A stretch of 64,000 bases of DNA from positions 8,216 through 72,215 of the forward strand of contig CANAJP010000004.1 of the NCBI GenBank assembly GCA_947361615.1, given 5' to 3'. Each line of letters opens with the position of its first letter. The stretch's first letter is position 1. The notes beneath the pieces are model-generated. The model saw only the letters and a program-made list of their open reading frames with translations. It was not told the DNA's origin and ran no database searches. This document shows positions 6,161-32,436 of this stretch, piece by piece. A program made the translations under genes and the position numbers. The DNA comes from an uncultured Candidatus Melainabacteria bacterium. GTDB lineage: Bacteria; Cyanobacteriota; Vampirovibrionia; Gastranaerophilales; Gastranaerophilaceae.

Positions 6161-8601
6161 ATTATTTCCTCTTTCTTTTTATCAAAATATCCTTTTTTAC
6201 TTGCAAAATGCTCTATTTCTTTATTTTGTGATAATAAAGGTCGCTGGTTTACATAATTTTGACATTTTTCATACAATATTTTTTTTAATTCAGTTTTGGA
6301 GTAAAGTTTTGCATCTACAGATAATAATTCATTAATTGGTGTTGTATATTCTGTAACCATTTTTTTAAATAATAAGTCAAGCCAGCGAAGATCCAGAGTT
6401 TCATCGTGTATTCTTTCTAGTAGTGATAGCGAAAAACCAGGAGTTTTTCTAAAATACATTTGATGCAATGAGGCAGAAGAAGAAAGCGAAACAATTGCGT
6501 CAACGTCAATATCATAACATTCCATAGGTAGAGTTGTATTTTCCATTATCACAACAGCAGGATTATCAATATATTTTCTCGGATCTCTCGGGTGTGGTTT
6601 GAAATATATTTTGTAACCTAATTCAATTAACTGTTCAATTAAACAGTTTTGTAAGCAAATATATTCATCTCTTGGTAATCCTGAAATTTCCCACCAAGAG
6701 CCGCAGAAGATGATAGTCTTTTTATCTTTTGTGATTTCTATATTTAACGGACAAAGCTTTTCGCAATCTTTTGCGACGTCAAGAAAGATTGCCTTATTTA
6801 GCGGAATTATTTTATTGAAATAATTTTTATCAAGTCCGAAAAAATCGAGTTTATCTAAATAATTATGCATTATTATTTTATCGACTTTACTGTAATCCAG
6901 ATCTGCCAGGCGTGCCATTTTACTGCCTACACCCTCGTCTGTTAAAATCCATTTGGCATTAGGGTATAATTCTTCTGAAAGAAAAATAAACTGGTATTGA
7001 TTGGAAAAGAATATTTCATCAAAGTCGTATAATTTATTTTCAATAAAGAATCGTCTAAAATCAGTAATCTTACCGTATAATGTGTATATTTCTTTGAAGT
7101 CGTGCAGACTTGCAATTTTCTTGCAGGCAGTATCAAACATCGGATTTTTCATATTCGAATATATGAATAATACGTCTTCGCAATTTGGTGTATTCAATTG
7201 CTTAATAATTGCAAGGTCGTTTACCAGAGAAATATTTCCGGTGGTTAAAAATAGTCTGCGTGTAATGTTTTTATTTTTTCTGTTTAAGTATTCATTATTA
7301 GCTTTTACAAAATTTTTGACATGTCTTTTTATACTAATTTTGCATTTGATTTTGATTCCAAAAATTTTAATTAGTTTATATTTATTATTTCCCCTATATT
7401 CATTACCAATGTATAATATTTTTTTAGGAAGTTTTTTTAAAAATGATATGCAATCGCGTTTTCGAGATATTTTAATTTTCATTCCTAAAATACTAAATGT
7501 TTTGTGATTATTGTCTGAATTTTTAACAGAAAATATTTTTTGGTAATGCATTGATATTTTCAAGCCTAAAAGTCTTAAAACCATTTTTGGCTTTCGATTT
7601 CTATAGATTTTAAGGCCGAATATATTATTCCCAAATGCCTTAAACGGAATATCAAGCTGTAAAATTCTGTAATATTGTTGTTTTTTTATAAAATTAATTT
7701 CCTCCCCCCAGTCATAATTTGAAGGTAAGGTGTTTACAAAATCAGATAGAAGTTTTTTTATATCATCTGTTAATTTTTCATTATAGGACAAATCAAATAA
7801 TATTGTGTTGAATAGTCTGCGAAAGATTAGTTGGTTGAATTCTTCAAGTTGATTTTGTTCTTTATAAAAATTTAAAGCTGTAAGCGTAGAGTTTATATGG
7901 GTAGTTAATAAAAATTGAAAGTCCTTGTTCAGAAAGCTCATTGCAGAACTATTACGAATGTTGTAATTGTATAAACATTTATCAATGAAGTATAAATATT
8001 TTACTTTAATCATGTACATTAAATTGAATAATACATCTTCAGATATTTTATAATTTTCGAATTTTAGCTTGAGGCCTTGAATTATAGAGGCTTTATACAG
8101 AAATGCCCATGGAGGTAAAAACATACGGGTTATTAGTTTAACGGATTTTTGTTGTAACCCTTTTGTAAATTTTGAATGCCAATTTTTTATTCTTATGTAA
8201 TCACGTTCCGGTAAGTTTTCATTAATATTATTGGGGAAAAAACATACCAGGTCGGTTTTTGGATTTGAAAAGTACGCGTCCACAGCCAATTCATAGCATT
8301 CAGGTTCAAGCCAGTCATCAGAGTCGACAAATGCAATATATTCACCTGTTGCTATGTCAAGTCCGTGGTTTCTTGCAGCTGAAACACCTGCATTCTCTTG
8401 ATTTATTACTATAATTCGTTCATCTTTTTTTGCATATTCTTCTAATATCGTGTGTGAATTATCTGGAGAACCATCATTAATACAAATTATTTCAAGGTTT
8501 TTATATGTTTGATTAATAACACTATCCAAACATTTTTCTAAATATTTTTCGACATTATATACTGGTATAATTACTGATATTTTGGGATTTAAATTTGTCA
8601 T
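6157..8601 (-). CDS. bifunctional glycosyltransferase: N-terminal GT2 domain, basic repeat linker, C-terminal sialyltransferase-motif (GT38/GT52-like) domain
   Basis: aa 8-100 carry [14 protein letters not shown]...INDGSPDNS...FVDSDD (GT2). The C-terminal half carries LTDEGVGS (aa 552-559), [12 protein letters not shown] (aa 665-676) and VSLSSSASL. By eye it is colinear with E. coli NeuS (LIEEGTGTY, IFIKPHPKEPKK, IGLTSSSL). Confidence 0.65.
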
Positions 8602-13776: not shown

Positions 13777-14595
13777 TTAGACCTTTCCCATTAGACTTAC
13801 AAAATTATTTTGTTTATCCCAGACTTTCCAAGGGGCGTTATCATTTGCCCACATTTCGTCAAGTTCTATTTTATCGCGCAAAGTATCCATCGGGCGCCAG
13901 AAGCCATCGTGCTTATATGCAACTAATTCCCCGGCGTTTGCAATGCTTTCAAGTGGTTTTCTTTCGAATATTTCGTTCGGGTTATTGGCTTCAATGAAGT
14001 TGAAAACTTCCGGTTCACAGACGAAAAATCCACCGTTAATCCAGTTACCATCACCTTTTGGCTTTTCTCTGAATGACGTAATCATATTATCAGGTGTTAT
14101 GTTTAATGCTCCAAATCTTCCTGATGGTTGCACTGAAGTCATTGTCATTAGTTTGCCTGATTTTTTGTGGAAATCAACAAGTTCTGAAATATTGACATCA
14201 GATACTCCGTCGCCGTAAGTCAACAAGAAAGGTTCGTTACCTACGTAATCCTGTGCTTTTTTTATGCGTCCGCCAGTCATTGTATCCTGACCTGTGTAAA
14301 GCATTGTCACGCGCCACGGTTCGGTACGCATTTTGTGGAGTTCAACACTATTAGTTCTCATATCCACAGTTATGTCTGAATATCTTTGATAATAGTGCAC
14401 AAAGTAATCCTTGATGATATGAGATTTGTAACCTGTGAGGATTACAAAATCATTGAAGCCGTAATGAGAATAGATTTTCATTATGTGCCAAATTATCGGG
14501 TAGCCACCAATTTCCACCATTGGTTTTGGTTTCGAAACGGTTTCTTCGCCTAATCTTGTTCCGAGACCACCCGCAAGAATCAAAACTTTCATCAA
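13777..14595 (-). CDS. rfbF: glucose-1-phosphate cytidylyltransferase
   Basis: MKVLILAGGLGTRLGEETVSKPKPMVEIGGYPIIWHIMKIY is near-canonical RfbF/DdhA. First gene of the operon. Confidence 0.92.
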   Translation of the reverse strand: MMKVLILAGGLGTRLGEETVSKPKPMVEIGGYPIIWHIMKIYSHYGFNDFVILTGYKSHIIKDYFVHYYQRYSDITVDMRTNSVELHKMRTEPWRVTMLYTGQDTMTGGRIKKAQDYVGNEPFLLTYGDGVSDVNISELVDFHKKSGKLMTMTSVQPSGRFGALNITPDNMITSFREKPKGDGNWINGGFFVCEPEVFNFIEANNPNEIFERKPLESIANAGELVAYKHDGFWRPMDTLRDKIELDEMWANDNAPWKVWDKQNNFVSLMGKV

Positions 14596-14696
14596 ATGCT
14601 CCTTATATCTGAACTCTTCTTTTTTAATATACCATAAAAAAGATTTTATTACTTATTTATGAATAATTATTAAAAAGTCTTAGAAGAGCTGTTTTA

Positions 14697-15239
14697 CTAT
14701 AAAATGAAGTTCATATAACTTTCGTCTATTTTATCCTGTTCAATACCAATGTAACGCAGTGTTATTGATGTTGAGGAGTGGTTAAGGATTTTTTGTAAAA
14801 GTGCTATATCGTTGAACTTTATATAATGATGATATCCGAAGGTTTTTCTTAAAGAGTGTGTTCCTACTTTGTATTCAATGCCAAGTTCTGCGCAGACGTT
14901 ATTTATAATTCTGTAGGCCTGGTGTCGATCGAGTCGGTTGTCGTAAACTGTTTTAAACAATGGTTCTTTATTTTTACGGTTTTTGGTGTGAATTTCTATA
15001 AGTTTTTGAAGCTTTTCGTTTATTGGGAATTTTTTGTATTTTTTGGTTTTTTTCTCAATAATTGTTATATGGGTTTTATCTTTGACGTCACCGACATTAA
15101 GATTGAGAATGTCTGAGATTCTGAGGCCGCTGTTTGTGCCCATTACAAAAAATAATAAATCTCTTAAACTTTGATTGGCGAGTGCAGTTTCGATTTTTTT
15201 TAAATCATCTTTGTTTCTGATTGGTTCTACGATGTTCAT
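14697..15239 (-). CDS. small (180 aa) catalytic-domain-only tyrosine recombinase, FimB/FimE-sized
   Basis: GLRISDIL (Arg I), HSLRKTFGYHHY (H-x-x-R) and LNHSSTSITLRYI (His...Tyr nucleophile). Confidence 0.85.
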   Translation of the reverse strand: MNIVEPIRNKDDLKKIETALANQSLRDLLFFVMGTNSGLRISDILNLNVGDVKDKTHITIIEKKTKKYKKFPINEKLQKLIEIHTKNRKNKEPLFKTVYDNRLDRHQAYRIINNVCAELGIEYKVGTHSLRKTFGYHHYIKFNDIALLQKILNHSSTSITLRYIGIEQDKIDESYMNFIL

Positions 15240-15348
15240 AAGTCCTCCTTTATTATTGGCTTATGTTAAATTGTAGATGTAAAATGGGTTCTGGTTAATA
15301 TTTAGGGAAGATTTAAGTTGTAAGTGCTTGAATAGAAAGGAGGTTATT

Positions 15349-15900
15349 ATGGTGAGAAAATATGTGGCTCAACCAATTAAAGACAAAAAGGATATTCAAA
15401 CTGTAGAACAATATCTGAAAGAACGTAATTATAGGGATTATGTTATTTGGGTGCTGGGCCTGAATTCAGGATTGCGTGTGTCAGATATCATCGGGTTAAA
15501 TGTTTCTGATGTTACAAATAAAACACATATTTCAATTATAGAAAAAAAGACATCTAAACAGAAAAATTTTTATATCAATGATAAATTAAAAAGAGTTCTG
15601 GAAGATTTTACCAGAGGAAGAGTGCTTGAAGAACCGCTATTTATTGGAAAACAAGGCCGTCGATTAGATCGTTCTCAGGTCTATCGTTTTATTAAAAAAG
15701 CTTGTGATGATAATGGAATAAAAACTCATGTTTCAACACATACGATGCGAAAATCTTTTGGTTATCATCATTATCAAAAGTTTAAAGATTCAATAATCCT
15801 GCAAAAAATTTTTAATCACAGTAGCCAGAGAATAACTCTAATGTATATAGGTATAGAACAAGATGAAATTGATTTGAGCTATAAAAATTTTGAATTATAG
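15349..15900 (+). CDS. small (183 aa) tyrosine recombinase, paralog of 14697-15239, divergently transcribed
   Basis: AGGAGG RBS before the ATG at 15349. Motifs GLRVSDII, HTMRKSFGYHHY and FNHSSQRITLMYI. Confidence 0.85.
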   Translation: MVRKYVAQPIKDKKDIQTVEQYLKERNYRDYVIWVLGLNSGLRVSDIIGLNVSDVTNKTHISIIEKKTSKQKNFYINDKLKRVLEDFTRGRVLEEPLFIGKQGRRLDRSQVYRFIKKACDDNGIKTHVSTHTMRKSFGYHHYQKFKDSIILQKIFNHSSQRITLMYIGIEQDEIDLSYKNFEL

Positions 15901-15919
15901 ATAAGTCGTTGCTCCACTT

Positions 15920-16099
15920 TGTATCATTTTGTATCATTTTGATACACGAAGCAATATATCAACGAATATATGTTAAAAAAAGGCTATTGTCAATTTGAAT
16001 AGCCTGCATTTTGTAACAAATTTAAGAATTTTCCCATCTATTCTTCTGTCAAAACTCTTTTGTATCAATTGTTTTCAACGTTTGCCCCAAAATGATACA
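15920..16099. promoter_or_regulatory. candidate invertible DNA switch carrying an outward-facing promoter
   Basis: The 12-bp motif TGTATCATTTTG is present twice in tandem (15920-15931, 15930-15941). It is present once inverted as CAAAATGATACA (16088-16099). Between the copies, on the minus strand, lies TTGACA (15993-15988), 17 nt, then TATATT (15970-15965). Confidence 0.5.
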
Positions 16100-16133
16100 G
16101 AATGGGGCAAAGTGAAGTAGAGGATTTGAATTT

Positions 16134-17096
16134 ATGCCAGAAGTTAGTAATGAAGTTAATATCGCAATGATATTAGACGATGCTTATTTGATGTGTTCAC
16201 TTTGTACTATTTATTCCTTGAAAAAGAACAAGAAGAAAAACTCGGTTTATAATTTATTCCTTTTTCTCAATGATGTTAGTCTGTCTGCTAAAAGATTGTT
16301 GAATAAACTGAGTTCATATAATTTCAATGTTATGATGATTGATGCAAGCGTAGAAAGATTCAAAAATGTTTCCCGTATTGTTCATATAACCCAGACTGCA
16401 CTTATTAAATTTAATTTGTCAGGTTTGTTGTCGAATTTAGATAAAGTTTTATATATAGATGGGGATATTATTGTTCAGAAAGATTTAACTGATTTGTATA
16501 ATATGGATGTTTCGGATTATTATTTGGCGGGTGTAAGGGAATTGCGAGCTGAGAAAAAGTACAAGTTTCATAAATTAGTGGGGCAGAAATATTATATAAA
16601 TTCCGGTGTTATGTTGATGAATCTTGATTTGTTAAGAAAAGACAACCTTGAACAAGTTTTTATTGACACCAAGCTAAATCAGCCCAAAGAGTGGAAATGT
16701 ATGGATCAAGATGTATTTAATTATGTTTGTGGCGCAAAAATAAAGTATCTGGGAGTTGAGTATAATAATCCCTGTATAATATTTGTTGATTCTGGAACAA
16801 CCATAGATGAAATAAATAGTTTTTATAATACAAAATATAAAACAATAAAGGATTTATGTAAGAATTCTTATATATTGCACTATGCTGGCCCGCCGAAGCC
16901 GTGGTTATATGAAATACCTTACCATTCGAAATTATATTCTCGTTATTTGTTAAATTGTAAAGTTCCTTTGTATGAGAAACCGCCTTGGTTTACCAAAATT
17001 TTTTCTGTTTCGAACTTAGAGAGTAAAACTCATACTGTTATAAAAATATTAGATATCAGAATAAAAATAAGGAGAAGAAATAGTGTCAAAGGTTAG
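16134..17096 (+). CDS. GT8-family glycosyltransferase
   Basis: YIDGDIIVQKD (DxD), NSGVMLMNL and HYAGPPKPW motifs. C-terminal basic motif KIFSVSNLESKTHTVIKILDIRIKIRRR. Confidence 0.8.
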   Translation: MPEVSNEVNIAMILDDAYLMCSLCTIYSLKKNKKKNSVYNLFLFLNDVSLSAKRLLNKLSSYNFNVMMIDASVERFKNVSRIVHITQTALIKFNLSGLLSNLDKVLYIDGDIIVQKDLTDLYNMDVSDYYLAGVRELRAEKKYKFHKLVGQKYYINSGVMLMNLDLLRKDNLEQVFIDTKLNQPKEWKCMDQDVFNYVCGAKIKYLGVEYNNPCIIFVDSGTTIDEINSFYNTKYKTIKDLCKNSYILHYAGPPKPWLYEIPYHSKLYSRYLLNCKVPLYEKPPWFTKIFSVSNLESKTHTVIKILDIRIKIRRRNSVKG

Positions 17097-18282
17097 TGTA
17101 ATTATACCTGTTTATAATGCTGAAAGATATTTGAGAGAATGTCTGGACAGTTTAATTAATCAAACATTATCTGATATAGAAATTATATGTGTTAATGATG
17201 GTTCTACAGATAATTCATTAAGTATTTTAAATGATTATTCTCAGAAAGATGACAGAATAAAAATTCTTAACCAGGAAAATCAGGGGCCTGCTGTTGCTAG
17301 AAATAATGCATTAAAGATATCTAGCAGTGAATTTATTATGTTTTGTGATAGTGATGATTTTTATTCTCCTGATATGTGTGAGGTAATGTATAAAACTATT
17401 ACTCAGCAAGATTTAGATATTGTGCAAGTCGCATCAAATGTTATTTCAGGTTATGATGAGCATATTCGCAATGTTGAAAATTTTAAAAAATATTTATCTT
17501 TTAATAAACGTGAAAATATTGATTTGAATAAGACTCAAAATAAGTTATATTTTACGAATGAAATTTGGAACAAAATTTTCAGAAATGATTTGATTGAGAA
17601 ATATAATATAACTTTTCCTTTGCAAAAATGTGGCGAAGATAGATGTTTTATAATGCAATACATTGCGATAAGTAGCAGAGGTTCTATTATTGATAAAAAG
17701 TTACATAATTATAGATTATTTGCAGGAACTTTGAGTGAGCAATTTGAGCATGATTATTCTTTATGTTTTTCATCTCCTAAAGGGTTAAATATTGTTTTGA
17801 AATTTTATAAAGAGAATAATATCTTTGAAAATAATGAGGAATATTTTGTAAATAAAGTTTGTTTTTCGTTGAAAAAATATTATGGAAAAATTCCTTTTGA
17901 ATTGCAAAAATTATATATTAGAGAACATATACGATTGTTTGAAAACCTCGAAATAAAAAAAGAGGTTTTGAATAGGTATAAATTAGCAAAATATTTATGG
18001 CGTTGTGATGTTCGAAACGTTAAAAATATATTGAATAATAAAATGGTATACACGTATCAAGAGAGAATTTTTTCGATCAAAAATGCCAGTATTCACAAGG
18101 TGGTGACAATTTTAGGGTTAAAGTTTAAATTTAGATCAGGAAAGCTTGTTGAACGTGAAAGATTTAGAAGCCTTGAAAATAAATTAAATTACGCAAATCG
18201 ATTATTGCTTGAACAAAAAAATATTCTTATGCAACACGAAGAATTATTGAACGAACTTGTCTGGCAAAATGGAAAAACTTAA
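17083..18282 (+). CDS. GT2-family glycosyltransferase
   Basis: [25 protein letters not shown]...VNDGSTDNS...FCDSDD motifs. C-terminal motif ERIFSIKNASIHKVVTILGLKFKF followed by a coiled-coil tail. GTG start overlapping the upstream gene. Confidence 0.85.
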   Translation: MSKVSVIIPVYNAERYLRECLDSLINQTLSDIEIICVNDGSTDNSLSILNDYSQKDDRIKILNQENQGPAVARNNALKISSSEFIMFCDSDDFYSPDMCEVMYKTITQQDLDIVQVASNVISGYDEHIRNVENFKKYLSFNKRENIDLNKTQNKLYFTNEIWNKIFRNDLIEKYNITFPLQKCGEDRCFIMQYIAISSRGSIIDKKLHNYRLFAGTLSEQFEHDYSLCFSSPKGLNIVLKFYKENNIFENNEEYFVNKVCFSLKKYYGKIPFELQKLYIREHIRLFENLEIKKEVLNRYKLAKYLWRCDVRNVKNILNNKMVYTYQERIFSIKNASIHKVVTILGLKFKFRSGKLVERERFRSLENKLNYANRLLLEQKNILMQHEELLNELVWQNGKT

Positions 18283-18293
18283 AGGGGGCGCAG

Positions 18294-19610
18294 GTGAACA
18301 TAACGGTAATAGGCACAGGGTATGTTGGTTTGGTTGCAGGGGCTTGCCTTGCAGATATGGGAAATAACGTTATATGTATTGACAATAATCTCGACAAACT
18401 TAGACAACTTGAAAACGGTATAATCCCTATTTATGAACCGGGGTTGGAAGAGCTTGTTAAATCTAATGTTCTGGAAGAAAGATTGAAATTTTCTTTTGAT
18501 ATTGATTCTGCTGTAAAAGCTTCAGAAGTCTGTTTTATTGCTGTCGGAACTCCACAGGGGGAAGACGGGTCGGCGGATTTACAATATGTATTTGAGGTCG
18601 CAAAATCTATTGCTAAAGCGATGAACGGATACAAAGTTATTGTTGATAAATCGACGGTTCCCGTCGGTACTGCTGAAAAAGTTGCTGAAATTATTGCGAA
18701 AAATACGAGTATGCCTTTTGACGTTGTTTCTAACCCTGAGTTTCTCAAACAAGGGAATGCCGTTGATGATTTCTTGCATCCTGATAGGGTTGTGATAGGT
18801 TCAAATTCAAACAGGGCAACTATGATTATGCAAGAGATTTATTCGCCGTTCTTTAGGACTGGGAATCGTGTTATTGTTATGGATGTTAAATCCGCAGAAA
18901 TGACAAAGTATGCTGCGAATTCGTTTCTTGCTACTAAAATTTCGTTTATGAATGAGATTGCGAATTTGTGCGAAAAACTTGGCGCAGACGCTGAAATGGT
19001 TCGGGTTGGTATGTCAACAGATAGTCGTATCGGTAACAAATTTTTATTCCCCGGGCTTGGATATGGTGGAAGCTGTTTTCCTAAAGATGTTAAAGCTTTA
19101 ATAAAAACGGGGCTTGAAAATGGTTGTGATATGTCTATAATTAAGTCTGCGGATAATGTAAATGAATTTCAAAGGGAAAGATTTATAAATAAAATTATTG
19201 ACAGATTTGAGGGAGATTTGTGTGGTAAGACATTTGCAGTTTGGGGCTTGGCGTTTAAGCCTAAGACGAATGATATGCGTGAAGCGCCGGCGATTACGAT
19301 AATTGATGCATTGTTGGAACGTGGGGCAAAGGTGCAGGCTTATGACCCTAAAGCGTTTGATTGCGCGCGGATTTATTTTAAAGATAGAATTACTTATTCT
19401 CAATCGGCGTATTCTGCATTAGAGAATGCTAATGCGTTGCTTCTTCTGACAGAATGGAACGAGTTCAGACGTCCTGATTTTGATAGGATTAAAACATTGT
19501 TAAAAACGCCTGTGATTTTTGATGGGCGTAACCAATACGACGCTAAAAGACTTATAGATAAAGGGTTTGAATATTATCAGATAGGATGGTGTCAGGCTAT
19601 TTGTCGGTAA
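18294..19610 (+). CDS. ugd: UDP-glucose 6-dehydrogenase
   Basis: ITVIGTGYVGLVAGACLADMGN and GGSCFPKD (catalytic Cys). 438 aa. Confidence 0.92.
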   Translation: MNITVIGTGYVGLVAGACLADMGNNVICIDNNLDKLRQLENGIIPIYEPGLEELVKSNVLEERLKFSFDIDSAVKASEVCFIAVGTPQGEDGSADLQYVFEVAKSIAKAMNGYKVIVDKSTVPVGTAEKVAEIIAKNTSMPFDVVSNPEFLKQGNAVDDFLHPDRVVIGSNSNRATMIMQEIYSPFFRTGNRVIVMDVKSAEMTKYAANSFLATKISFMNEIANLCEKLGADAEMVRVGMSTDSRIGNKFLFPGLGYGGSCFPKDVKALIKTGLENGCDMSIIKSADNVNEFQRERFINKIIDRFEGDLCGKTFAVWGLAFKPKTNDMREAPAITIIDALLERGAKVQAYDPKAFDCARIYFKDRITYSQSAYSALENANALLLLTEWNEFRRPDFDRIKTLLKTPVIFDGRNQYDAKRLIDKGFEYYQIGWCQAICR

Positions 19611-20392: not shown

Positions 20393-20557
20393 TTATGAAA
20401 AATTATATTGAGTTGTTATTTCGCCATTAGGTAATTCAAAAATTATTTTCCCATTTATACAATAAACATTTGGAATACCATTTTTATGGTTATTCTCTTG
20501 AGCTTTTTTAATAGCTCTATTACCTAGTTTTAATAATTTTTCAGATAATTTTGTCAT
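20393..20557 (-). CDS. 54-aa protein translationally coupled to the zeta-like ATPase gene (possible antitoxin)
   Basis: Not in the ORF track (<60 aa). Hand translation: MTKLSEKLLKLGNRAIKKAQENNHKNGIPNVYCINGKIIFELPNGEITTQYNFS. Its ATG shares one base with the upstream TAA (TAATG). Confidence 0.55.
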   Translation of the reverse strand: MTKLSEKLLKLGNRAIKKAQENNHKNGIPNVYCINGKIIFELPNGEITTQYNFS

Positions 20558-21126
20558 TATTCAAAATCCTTTATAAATTTATTATACAAATTTTCACTAA
20601 ATATTTCAATCTCACTGTTAGCAAATTGAGCAACTAAAATATATTCAGTAGTACCGTTATAAAATAAATTCCATTCATCAACTATGTTTTTATACAAGTA
20701 CCAAAAATTATCCTTACTTCTATGAAAACGTCTAATAATATCTTCTCTAGGAATATTATGTCCACCGTTTAAGACTCTAATTTTAATTCTATTTTCGCAC
20801 AAAATAGGACTATCTAAGTAAGAATAAATTAAAACTACTTGATAACCTAAATTTTTGGCTTTTTGAATAGTTTTTATATGGTTTTTACCTGATAATGTAG
20901 TTTCAATGGCAAAGGATTTCCCTGAATTAAGTAAATTTTCAAGTTTTTTTATGACAATCTTACCAGCTTTTATTTTTACGCTTTCAATATTATTAGGACA
21001 TATTTCTTTTGCTACATCATCAGCATTTAGGAATGCCAAATTTTCTGATGGCAAGAGTTCGCTTGCTAATGTGCTTTTACCACTACCATTTGCGCCTGCT
21101 ATGATATATAGAATTTTATCTTGCAT
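20557..21126 (-). CDS. zeta-toxin-like P-loop kinase/ATPase (COG4185-like)
   Basis: Walker A IIAGANGSGKST at the N-terminus. 189 aa. The ETTLSG segment is typical of zeta/AAA_33-type kinases. Confidence 0.7.
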   Translation of the reverse strand: MQDKILYIIAGANGSGKSTLASELLPSENLAFLNADDVAKEICPNNIESVKIKAGKIVIKKLENLLNSGKSFAIETTLSGKNHIKTIQKAKNLGYQVVLIYSYLDSPILCENRIKIRVLNGGHNIPREDIIRRFHRSKDNFWYLYKNIVDEWNLFYNGTTEYILVAQFANSEIEIFSENLYNKFIKDFE

Positions 21127-25962: not shown

Positions 25963-25968
25963 AATTTT

Positions 25969-26050
25969 CTGTCATCCTGAAACAAGTTCGGGATGACAAG
26001 GAACAGAGCGTTTTGCTTGGCAAAGTCGCAAATCCGCAAATTCAGCATGA
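25969..26050. repeat. palindromic MITE-like repeat copy (GTCATCC[CT]GAA..TTCGGGATGAC family)
   Basis: gtcatcctgaaacaagttcgggatgac (25971-25997), plus a second half-site ttcagcatgacaaagg about 40 nt downstream. Confidence 0.7.
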
Positions 26051-32254: not shown

Positions 32255-32414
32255 CTGTCATCCCGAACTTGTTTCGGGATCTGTCAAACGATACTTTTTA
32301 AGTTTAAACAAAAGAATAAATTTTGATTTCAACGTGGAATTAATTGTTGAATTTTTTACTTAATTTTTTTCTTACGGAACACTGGACAGATCCCGAAACA
32401 AGTTCGGGATGACA
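32255..32414. repeat. MITE-like element with 32-bp terminal inverted repeats
   Basis: ctgtcatcccgaacttgtttcgggatctgtca (32255-32286) has its reverse complement at 32383-32414. They flank about 96 bp of AT-rich DNA. Confidence 0.75.
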
Positions 32415-32436
32415 GAAATGTGTTATAACCCGTCGA

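Follow-up and report, generated by a model that had tools for sequence, protein, structure and literature searches.

A candidate promoter inverton beside a small tyrosine recombinase in a glycan locus of Gastranaerophilales

Background

The fimS switch of Escherichia coli is worked by FimB and FimE, small recombinases of about 180-200 amino acids (aa) that consist essentially of the catalytic domain. At fimS the recombinase adjoins a short (about 150-300 bp), repeat-flanked promoter segment for a surface-structure operon, and the population is biased toward OFF. In Clostridioides difficile the tyrosine recombinase RecV inverts short repeat-flanked regulatory segments ahead of genes for surface proteins (cwpV, flagellar). 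Here we analyse a candidate switch in 64,000 nucleotides (nt) of contig CANAJP010000004.1, a stretch that we call the window. The window carries two divergent recombinase genes, rec1 and rec2, and an intergenic gap that separates rec2 from an operon of two glycosyltransferases (GT8 and GT2) and a UDP-glucose dehydrogenase.

We know of almost nothing on how the Gastranaerophilales, uncultured gut relatives of the cyanobacteria, deal with their hosts or phages. Our literature search found no paper tying promoter invertons to Gastranaerophilales or Melainabacteria. For Melainabacteria we found one report of an 'epigenetic inverton', a single one at hsdS, and the main text of a large survey of invertons makes no mention of the group. 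A passage in PMC11892184 states that gut invertons often lie near genes for cell-surface modification. The names of homologues and the titles of records place the organism of the window in Candidatus Gastranaerophilales, phylum Melainabacteria. For several related contigs the bin bears the name of an unrelated taxon, which we take to be mis-binning.

A first-pass annotation of the window had proposed that a FimB/FimE-like pair of recombinases sits next to an invertible promoter for the glycosyltransferase operon. We believe the promoter half of that proposal and find the pair unsupported. We argue that the gap after rec2 is a promoter inverton with its recombinase encoded alongside, and we put the probability of this at roughly 0.72. 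The reading of an invertible promoter is strongly backed by sequence comparison, in which homologous segments appear in opposite orientations in near-identical genomes. The likely enzyme of the switch would be rec2. This copy presumably still inverts, with ON and OFF states as we assign them below and a surface-glycan phenotype as the probable result.

Results and discussion

Inversion among related loci

Scanning genomes with rec2 gave 80 loci, nearly all of them from Gastranaerophilales; related loci are referred to by L numbers. At least 43 of the 80 have a matching inverted repeat of 19-35 nt that begins 5-50 nt past the recombinase stop codon, and the repeat-flanked segment measures 150-360 bp, with about 190-200 bp the commonest length. 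In 41 of these 43 loci the segment is followed by a same-strand gene. Genomes can carry several paralogous switches, as with L026 and L034 on one chromosome.

Three pairs of closely related loci differ by a clean inversion of precisely the repeat-flanked segment, so homologous loci occur in both orientations. In L010 and L011 (samples BRZ_CB and BRZ_DF; recombinase 80% identical to rec2) the flanks match at 457/460 and 426/429 positions, and the inner segment matches at 143/143 when reverse complemented and at 90/164 on the same strand. The flanks of L020 and L021 match at 397/430 and 202/219, with 93/110 for the inner reverse complement and 67/119 for the same strand. For L035 and L072 the left flank matches at 428/465, the inner reverse complement at 161/177 and the same strand at 114/203. 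The promoter of L011 faces the downstream gene, which is the ON orientation, and the geometry there matches the inverted state that we predict for the window. Assembly error is an unlikely source of these differences because the repeats, at 21-30 nt, are shorter than the usual assembler k-mers.

The ends of some contigs tell a similar story. L009 and L012 both break off 2-4 nt past the centre heptad of the left site (the heptads are the TGNNNCA units described below), and the break in L009 falls where the orientations diverge in the L009-L011 lineage. The contig of L073 closes with a fold-back copy of 56 nt, in which 186-241 repeats the left site at 1-56 (counted from the recombinase stop) with 55/56 positions matching. 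We infer that these three contig ends are the assembly signature of mixed orientations within a sample.

We define the rec2 clade as the loci whose recombinase is 74-88% identical to rec2 (L008-L019, L088, L089, L097-L100). The promoter is conserved in this clade: TTGACA is invariant across ten aligned segments, and nearly all have a conserved -10 element 16-17 nt downstream. Nearly all rec2-clade loci also carry a triple-heptad pattern at one or both segment ends, while none of the rec1-like clade does. Of 89 loci, only those of the rec2 clade and copies of the present locus have the pattern, and they have it at the segment ends.

Anatomy of the switch

The gap runs from 15901 to 16133, which agrees with the 233 bp given in the first-pass annotation. 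Its inverted repeat is longer than first described: 15912-15941 is 83% complementary to 16088-16117 over 30 nt. The repeat has a perfect core of 12 nt, TGTATCATTTTG, whose exact inverse had been placed correctly at 16088-16099. Between the perfect cores lies an inner invertible segment of 146 bp (15942-16087), and the whole segment, which is probably flippable, is roughly 200 bp. The tandem 12-mers of the earlier description do occur, at 15920-15931 and 15930-15941, but they overlap by 2 nt and are really a duplicated 10-bp unit, TGTATCATTT (15920-15939, plus strand). A further partial copy, tttgtatcaatt, is also present, though one base away from where it had been put, at 16059-16070.

On closer reading the repeats are arrays of TGNNNCA heptads. 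The left recombination site (inverted repeat left, IRL; 15910-15946, plus strand) holds four of them at exact 10-bp spacing: TGCTCCA at 15910, TGTATCA at 15920 and again at 15930, and TGATACA at 15940. The right site (inverted repeat right, IRR; 16083-16109, plus strand) holds TGCCCCA at 16083, TGATACA at 16093 and TGGGGCA at 16103. The outer and inner heptads of IRR together make up the 9-bp hairpin noted earlier, TTTGCCCCA/TGGGGCAAA, which is confirmed at 16081-16089 and 16103-16111. The inner heptads are conservedly asymmetric in the rec2 clade, with TGATACA or TGAGACA on one side and TGGGGCA on the other. One more heptad, TGTATCA at 16061-16067 (plus strand), lies 22 bp inside IRR and aligns with TGATA(T/C)A in most aligned relatives; it is possibly an accessory binding site. 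The stop codon of rec2 is 10 nt ahead of the first heptad, so a site-specific recombinase gene directly adjoins the segment.

The 12-mer by itself is weakly significant, with 3 matches against 0.96 expected and 3 reached in 7 of 100 shuffles. The pattern TGNNNCA-N3-TGNNNCA-N3-TGNNNCA is a different matter: it has 3 matches in the 64-kb window, all at the two segment ends, and none in 100 shuffles. The repeat of the switch ranks second among the short-range inverted repeats of the window.

Inside the segment is a promoter, TTGACA-17-TATATT, on the minus strand from 15993 to 15965. It agrees with the consensus at 11/12 positions and is the best promoter match within 14500-16300. As had been claimed, it points away from the operon and at the 3' end of rec2. 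A hairpin, AGGCTATT/AATAGCCT, occupies 15981-16005 with the -35 element in its loop, and it is followed by U7 on the minus strand and by GCAUUUUGU on the plus strand. It folds at -11.5 and -12.7 kcal/mol (z about -2.8), and among relatives its stem changes on both sides, for example to GGACTGTT/AATAGTCC in L010. A simple terminator scan does not call the hairpin at 15981-16005. We read it as a predicted two-way terminator that would insulate the operon from rec2 read-through, and hairpin and promoter together as a predicted terminator-promoter module.

The recombinases

The first-pass annotation described two divergent recombinases of 180 and 183 aa, each a catalytic domain alone with its motifs, and the reading frames, domain matches and catalytic residues all bear this out. 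The gene rec1 (14697-15239, minus strand) encodes 180 aa, and rec2 (15349-15900, plus strand) encodes 183 aa, or 190 aa if translation begins at an upstream TTG at 15328. Both frames are intact. The two proteins are 54% identical, and rec1 belongs to a different clade from rec2. PF00589 is the single Pfam match of each and spans almost the whole protein (rec1 88.9 bits, 4.4e-25; rec2 88.7 bits, 5.1e-25; gathering cut-off 27.1 bits), so both belong to the tyrosine recombinase superfamily. Alignment to XerA (4a8e) and motif positions give the catalytic residues R40, H128, R131, H154 and Y163 in rec1 and R43, H131, R134, H157 and Y166 in rec2, which is the R...H-x-x-R...H/W...Y set of tyrosine recombinases. 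Neither has an N-terminal core-binding domain.

Selection has kept both genes. Compared with its homologue in L008, the closest relative, rec2 has 61 synonymous and 22 non-synonymous codon differences, which indicates purifying selection; rec1 has 67 and 8, which indicates strong purifying selection. The intergenic region between the two genes (15240-15348) is conserved in L008 and has weak promoter-like sites for both, TTGGCT-18-TAAAAT for rec2 (15256-15285, plus strand) and TTAACC-17-TACAAT for rec1 (15298-15270, minus strand).

By sequence the two proteins are not Xer recombinases. XerA_Arch is the best-scoring named model for the catalytic domain of rec1 and rec2, at 85-94 bits. The best score against the Xer models (XerA/C/D/S) is 94.4 bits, far below cut-offs that range from 220 to 335 bits, and the matches cover the C-terminal half of the models only. 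Neither protein looks like an integrase of a phage or integrative element, since at 180-183 aa each is a catalytic domain alone, the neighbours are glycan-synthesis genes, and synteny is kept in L008. A protein recorded from Helicobacter sp. 13S00401-1 (P0200) is 67% identical to rec1; given this, mini recombinases of the family may also occur outside Gastranaerophilales.

How the switch would work

In the mechanism that we propose, rec2 would bind the heptad arrays at 15910-15946 and 16083-16109, and strand exchange inside the shared core TGTATCATTTTG would flip the inner segment 15942-16087. In the present state the promoter would transcribe antisense into rec2 while the two-way hairpin halts read-through from rec2. 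We read the operon as OFF because GT8-GT2-Ugd has no strong promoter, the promoter of the segment is antisense to rec2, and the hairpin would stop read-through. Inversion would bring the -35 element to about 16036-16041 and the -10 to about 16059-16064, with the terminator upstream of the promoter, and the operon would be ON. The 5' untranslated region, roughly 60 nt, would then run through IRR to the GT8 ATG, with the start predicted about 62 nt upstream of that ATG. The new junctions are predicted to read ATCATTTTG joined to GGGCAAACGTTG (also given as ATCATTTTG joined to GGGCAAACGTTGAAAAC) and CTTCGTGTAT joined to CAAAATGATACAGAATGG. The outcome would be phase-variable modification of surface glycans in a Gastranaerophilales bacterium.

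The idea that the switch governs surface glycans had been put forward in the first-pass annotation, and it fits the family. Among 30 downstream genes examined, 17 encode glycan or cell-envelope enzymes, namely GT2, GT8, glycerophosphotransferase, TupA-like proteins, nucleotidyltransferases, UDP-galactopyranose mutase and a FemAB-like acetyltransferase. Others include a PLD-SNF2 helicase, a VWA protein, a type II/IV secretion ATPase and a LuxR-type regulator, and six have no Pfam match. Three of the 30 (those of L030, L063 and L066) encode a second, distantly related small recombinase. Such a second small tyrosine recombinase, 27-40% identical, stands just past the repeat-flanked segment in L030, L063, L066, L072 and L080, which suggests a switch that governs the enzyme of another switch.

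Does this copy still invert?

Several observations weigh against our reading, and it is important to set them out together. The claim of an invertible promoter stands on inversion in homologous segments and on the conserved promoter, while the window's own segment is known in one orientation only. The window and seven other assemblies all share that orientation, and none has the opposite orientation of this segment. The seven were found by searching for exact matches to the proteins GT8 and rec2 and to P0001, a variant 99% identical to rec2, and the samples with this orientation include DRR519815, SRR31563893, DRR519818, SRR9047546, SRR15058523 and SRR9047538. A metagenome scan with the constant right-hand flank did not find the locus; one with the palindromic site pattern found two loci, and the promoter faces the recombinase in both. 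P0015, a widely sampled protein of the rec2 clade, was returned from 4 places with one common orientation. Indeed the promoter faces the recombinase in all but one (L011) of about 17 rec2-clade loci that we examined, which suggests that flipping could be a rare event. The repeat of the window is also more degenerate than that of its relatives, with a perfect core of 12 nt versus 21-26 nt, and IRL has both a mutated outer heptad, TGCTCCA, and the 10-bp duplication. Finally, the labels ON and OFF are based on the match to the consensus promoter alone.

One alternative is that the locus is a relic or a locked switch, the descendant of an inverton that no longer flips here, its operon either constitutively silent from this promoter or expressed by read-through. 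The single orientation, the short core and the outer IRL heptad, mutated and shifted by one helical turn, all favour this idea, and in the rec1 lineage a fixed promoter without an inverted repeat does lie next to such a recombinase. The duplication itself is polymorphic: TGTATCATTT has a single copy in L007 (820-846, sample SRR15058523) and two copies in the window and the six other assemblies, and this difference in length is what displaces the outer heptad. Nevertheless we consider a relic unlikely. None of the seven heptads has lost the TGNNNCA form or departed from the 10-bp spacing, and rec2 is intact and under purifying selection. Assemblies show the majority orientation only, so a switch biased to OFF would look identical, and the relatives in which inversion is seen share the same bias, with most related assemblies facing the recombinase. 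We speculate that antisense transcription of rec2 in the OFF state could account for the strong bias of orientation.

Probably one recombinase per switch

A second alternative keeps the inverton and changes its control. In the manner of FimB and FimE, rec1 and rec2 might both act on one segment with differing directional preferences, which was the view of the first-pass annotation. The divergent pair is kept in L008, with rec1 96% and rec2 88% identical in a region of about 77% nucleotide identity. Within 400 nt downstream of rec1 lies no inverted repeat that could make a switch of its own, and the inner heptads of the two sites of the window's segment differ (TGATACA and TGGGGCA), a difference conserved in the clade that could underlie a directional bias.

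We find this improbable, however. The NCBIfam models of the FimB/FimE invertases (NF007370/NF007371) score 33.6-49.5 bits against cut-offs of 221-222. The closer kin of rec1 are in the other large recombinase clade, at 57-66% identity, whose sites look different. Variants of rec1 with at least 90% identity (L101-L107, L109) occur without rec2, without a repeat-flanked segment and without any heptad site; they are followed instead by a terminator hairpin and a fixed promoter-like TTTATGCTATATT. Switches of the rec2 clade, L010 and L011 included, have one recombinase gene nearby, the only one within 2-3 kb in those two. The mixture of heptad types is no argument for two enzymes either. A scheme of one heptad type per recombinase (TGCCCCA for one, TGATACA for the other) is ruled out, as both types are present at loci that have just one recombinase within 2-3 kb.

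The rec1-rec2 pair is best read as two cassettes set back to back. Since rec1 is under strong purifying selection it must do something. The sites of the rec1-like clade, CAACA-N10-14-TGTTG and TTACA-N10-14-TGTAA, were considered as its targets and show no enrichment in the window. The rec1 variants always border the same nucleotidyltransferase-epimerase operon on its upstream side (one of them borders an HMGL-like gene instead), with a Y1 transposase, a phage head-tail connector or an HxlR regulator as the unrelated neighbour on the far side. In the window (14596-14696) rec1 may mark the border of a movable glycan cassette.

The last alternative, that no recombination takes place, that the repeats serve an ordinary regulatory region as operators or terminators and that the recombinases are left over from a mobile element, can appeal to the stable folding of the IRR palindrome and the central hairpin (z about -2.8) and to the weak significance of the 12-mer alone, but we regard it as very improbable given that homologous segments are inverted exactly at the repeats between near-identical genomes, that the layout recurs in at least 43 loci, that the recombinases lack an integrase-type N-terminal domain, and that 15200-16300 matches no Rfam family of known RNA elements.

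Neighbouring genes and other repeats

The recombinase genes divide two groups of glycan genes. Leftward of rec1, on the minus strand, are a nucleotidyltransferase and three epimerase/dehydratase genes. Rightward of the gap, on the plus strand, the operon that the switch would control spans 16134-19610; its open reading frames overlap or abut, and the next one is on the opposite strand. It consists of GT8 (16134-17096, PF01501), GT2 (17083-18282, PF00535) and the UDP-glucose 6-dehydrogenase Ugd (18294-19610, PF03721/PF00984/PF03720). A ribosome-binding site, GAGGA, can be read off the sequence at 16120-16124 (plus strand), 9 nt ahead of the GT8 start codon. L008 keeps the rec1-rec2 pair and the switch, but there a GT2 gene comes directly after the switch.

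Past the operon, at 20557-21126 on the minus strand, is a gene for which the gene table of an identical contig lists Zeta-toxin and AAA_33 domains. The one longer inverted repeat at long range, of 70 nt and 81% complementary, has its arms 8.5 kb apart at 8505-8574 and 17098-17167, and the start of the GT2 gene holds one of them. Two paralogous GT2 genes on opposite strands, rather than a recombination site, are the probable source. A perfect 31-nt inverted repeat lies at 32255-32285 / 32385-32415 with 99 nt between the arms. Each arm is a small palindrome, CCCGAA...TTCGGG, and a third related copy lies 6 kb off at 25966-25998; together they look like a small repeated palindromic element.

Significance

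If our reading is true, DNA inversion may let these bacteria change their surface glycans, as it does in Bacteroides. At sister loci switches of this type precede genes for defence-like helicases, a pilus-type ATPase and regulators. A cassette takes up little room, one enzyme of 180 aa and roughly 200 bp of DNA, and the exact junctions predicted here make the switch testable. Pairs of recombinase and site in many specificities might serve as orthogonal genetic switches. The mechanism is already well known, so this work adds breadth and not a new principle.

A wider proposal can be made, which we offer tentatively and think possible rather than likely. Gut Gastranaerophilales would carry a large, diversified family of self-contained cassettes, each a recombinase with its own invertible promoter, built on TGNNNCA-type heptad arrays in helical phase. 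The resting antisense promoter would hold the switch OFF, which would explain the orientation shared by about 16/17 loci, and some cassettes would drive a second, distant recombinase, so that the switches form a hierarchy. If so, Cyanobacteriota/Melainabacteria would gain their first described system of promoter phase variation.

Comparison with known systems

The Xer recombinases (XerA/XerC/XerD) provide the best named models for the catalytic domain and the nearest solved structure, 4a8e. The likeness ends there, since the scores are far under the cut-offs, the N-terminal core-binding domain is absent, and the role that we propose is promoter inversion and not the resolution of chromosome dimers. 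The RecV switches of C. difficile are similar by description, with segments that hold terminator or promoter elements upstream of surface genes. However, RecV works in trans on several switches, and the cwpV switch acts through the formation of a terminator and not by reorienting a promoter.

The capsular-polysaccharide invertons of Bacteroides (Mpi/Tsr-type) and the gut invertons found by PhaseFinder are alike in setting. They too combine a gut bacterium, invertible promoters, surface glycan genes and several paralogous switches per genome. Where Bacteroides has one global invertase, the switches described here usually have their own recombinase immediately upstream, and they belong to the phylum Melainabacteria. 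The likeness to Mpi/Tsr is one of function.

A further parallel is fimS, which shares the small catalytic-domain recombinase, the short promoter segment beside it, the surface operon and the bias to OFF. The sites differ: arrays of TGNNNCA heptads at 10-bp spacing here, a 9-bp repeat with flanking half-sites in fimS. The enzymes differ as well, in that those described here score below the FimB/FimE family models and the sharing of one switch by two recombinases finds no support. The target differs too, a glycosyltransferase operon here and fimbriae in fimS. We conclude that the mechanism is a known one, while the lineage and the recombinase subfamily are new and the sites have a heptad architecture of their own.

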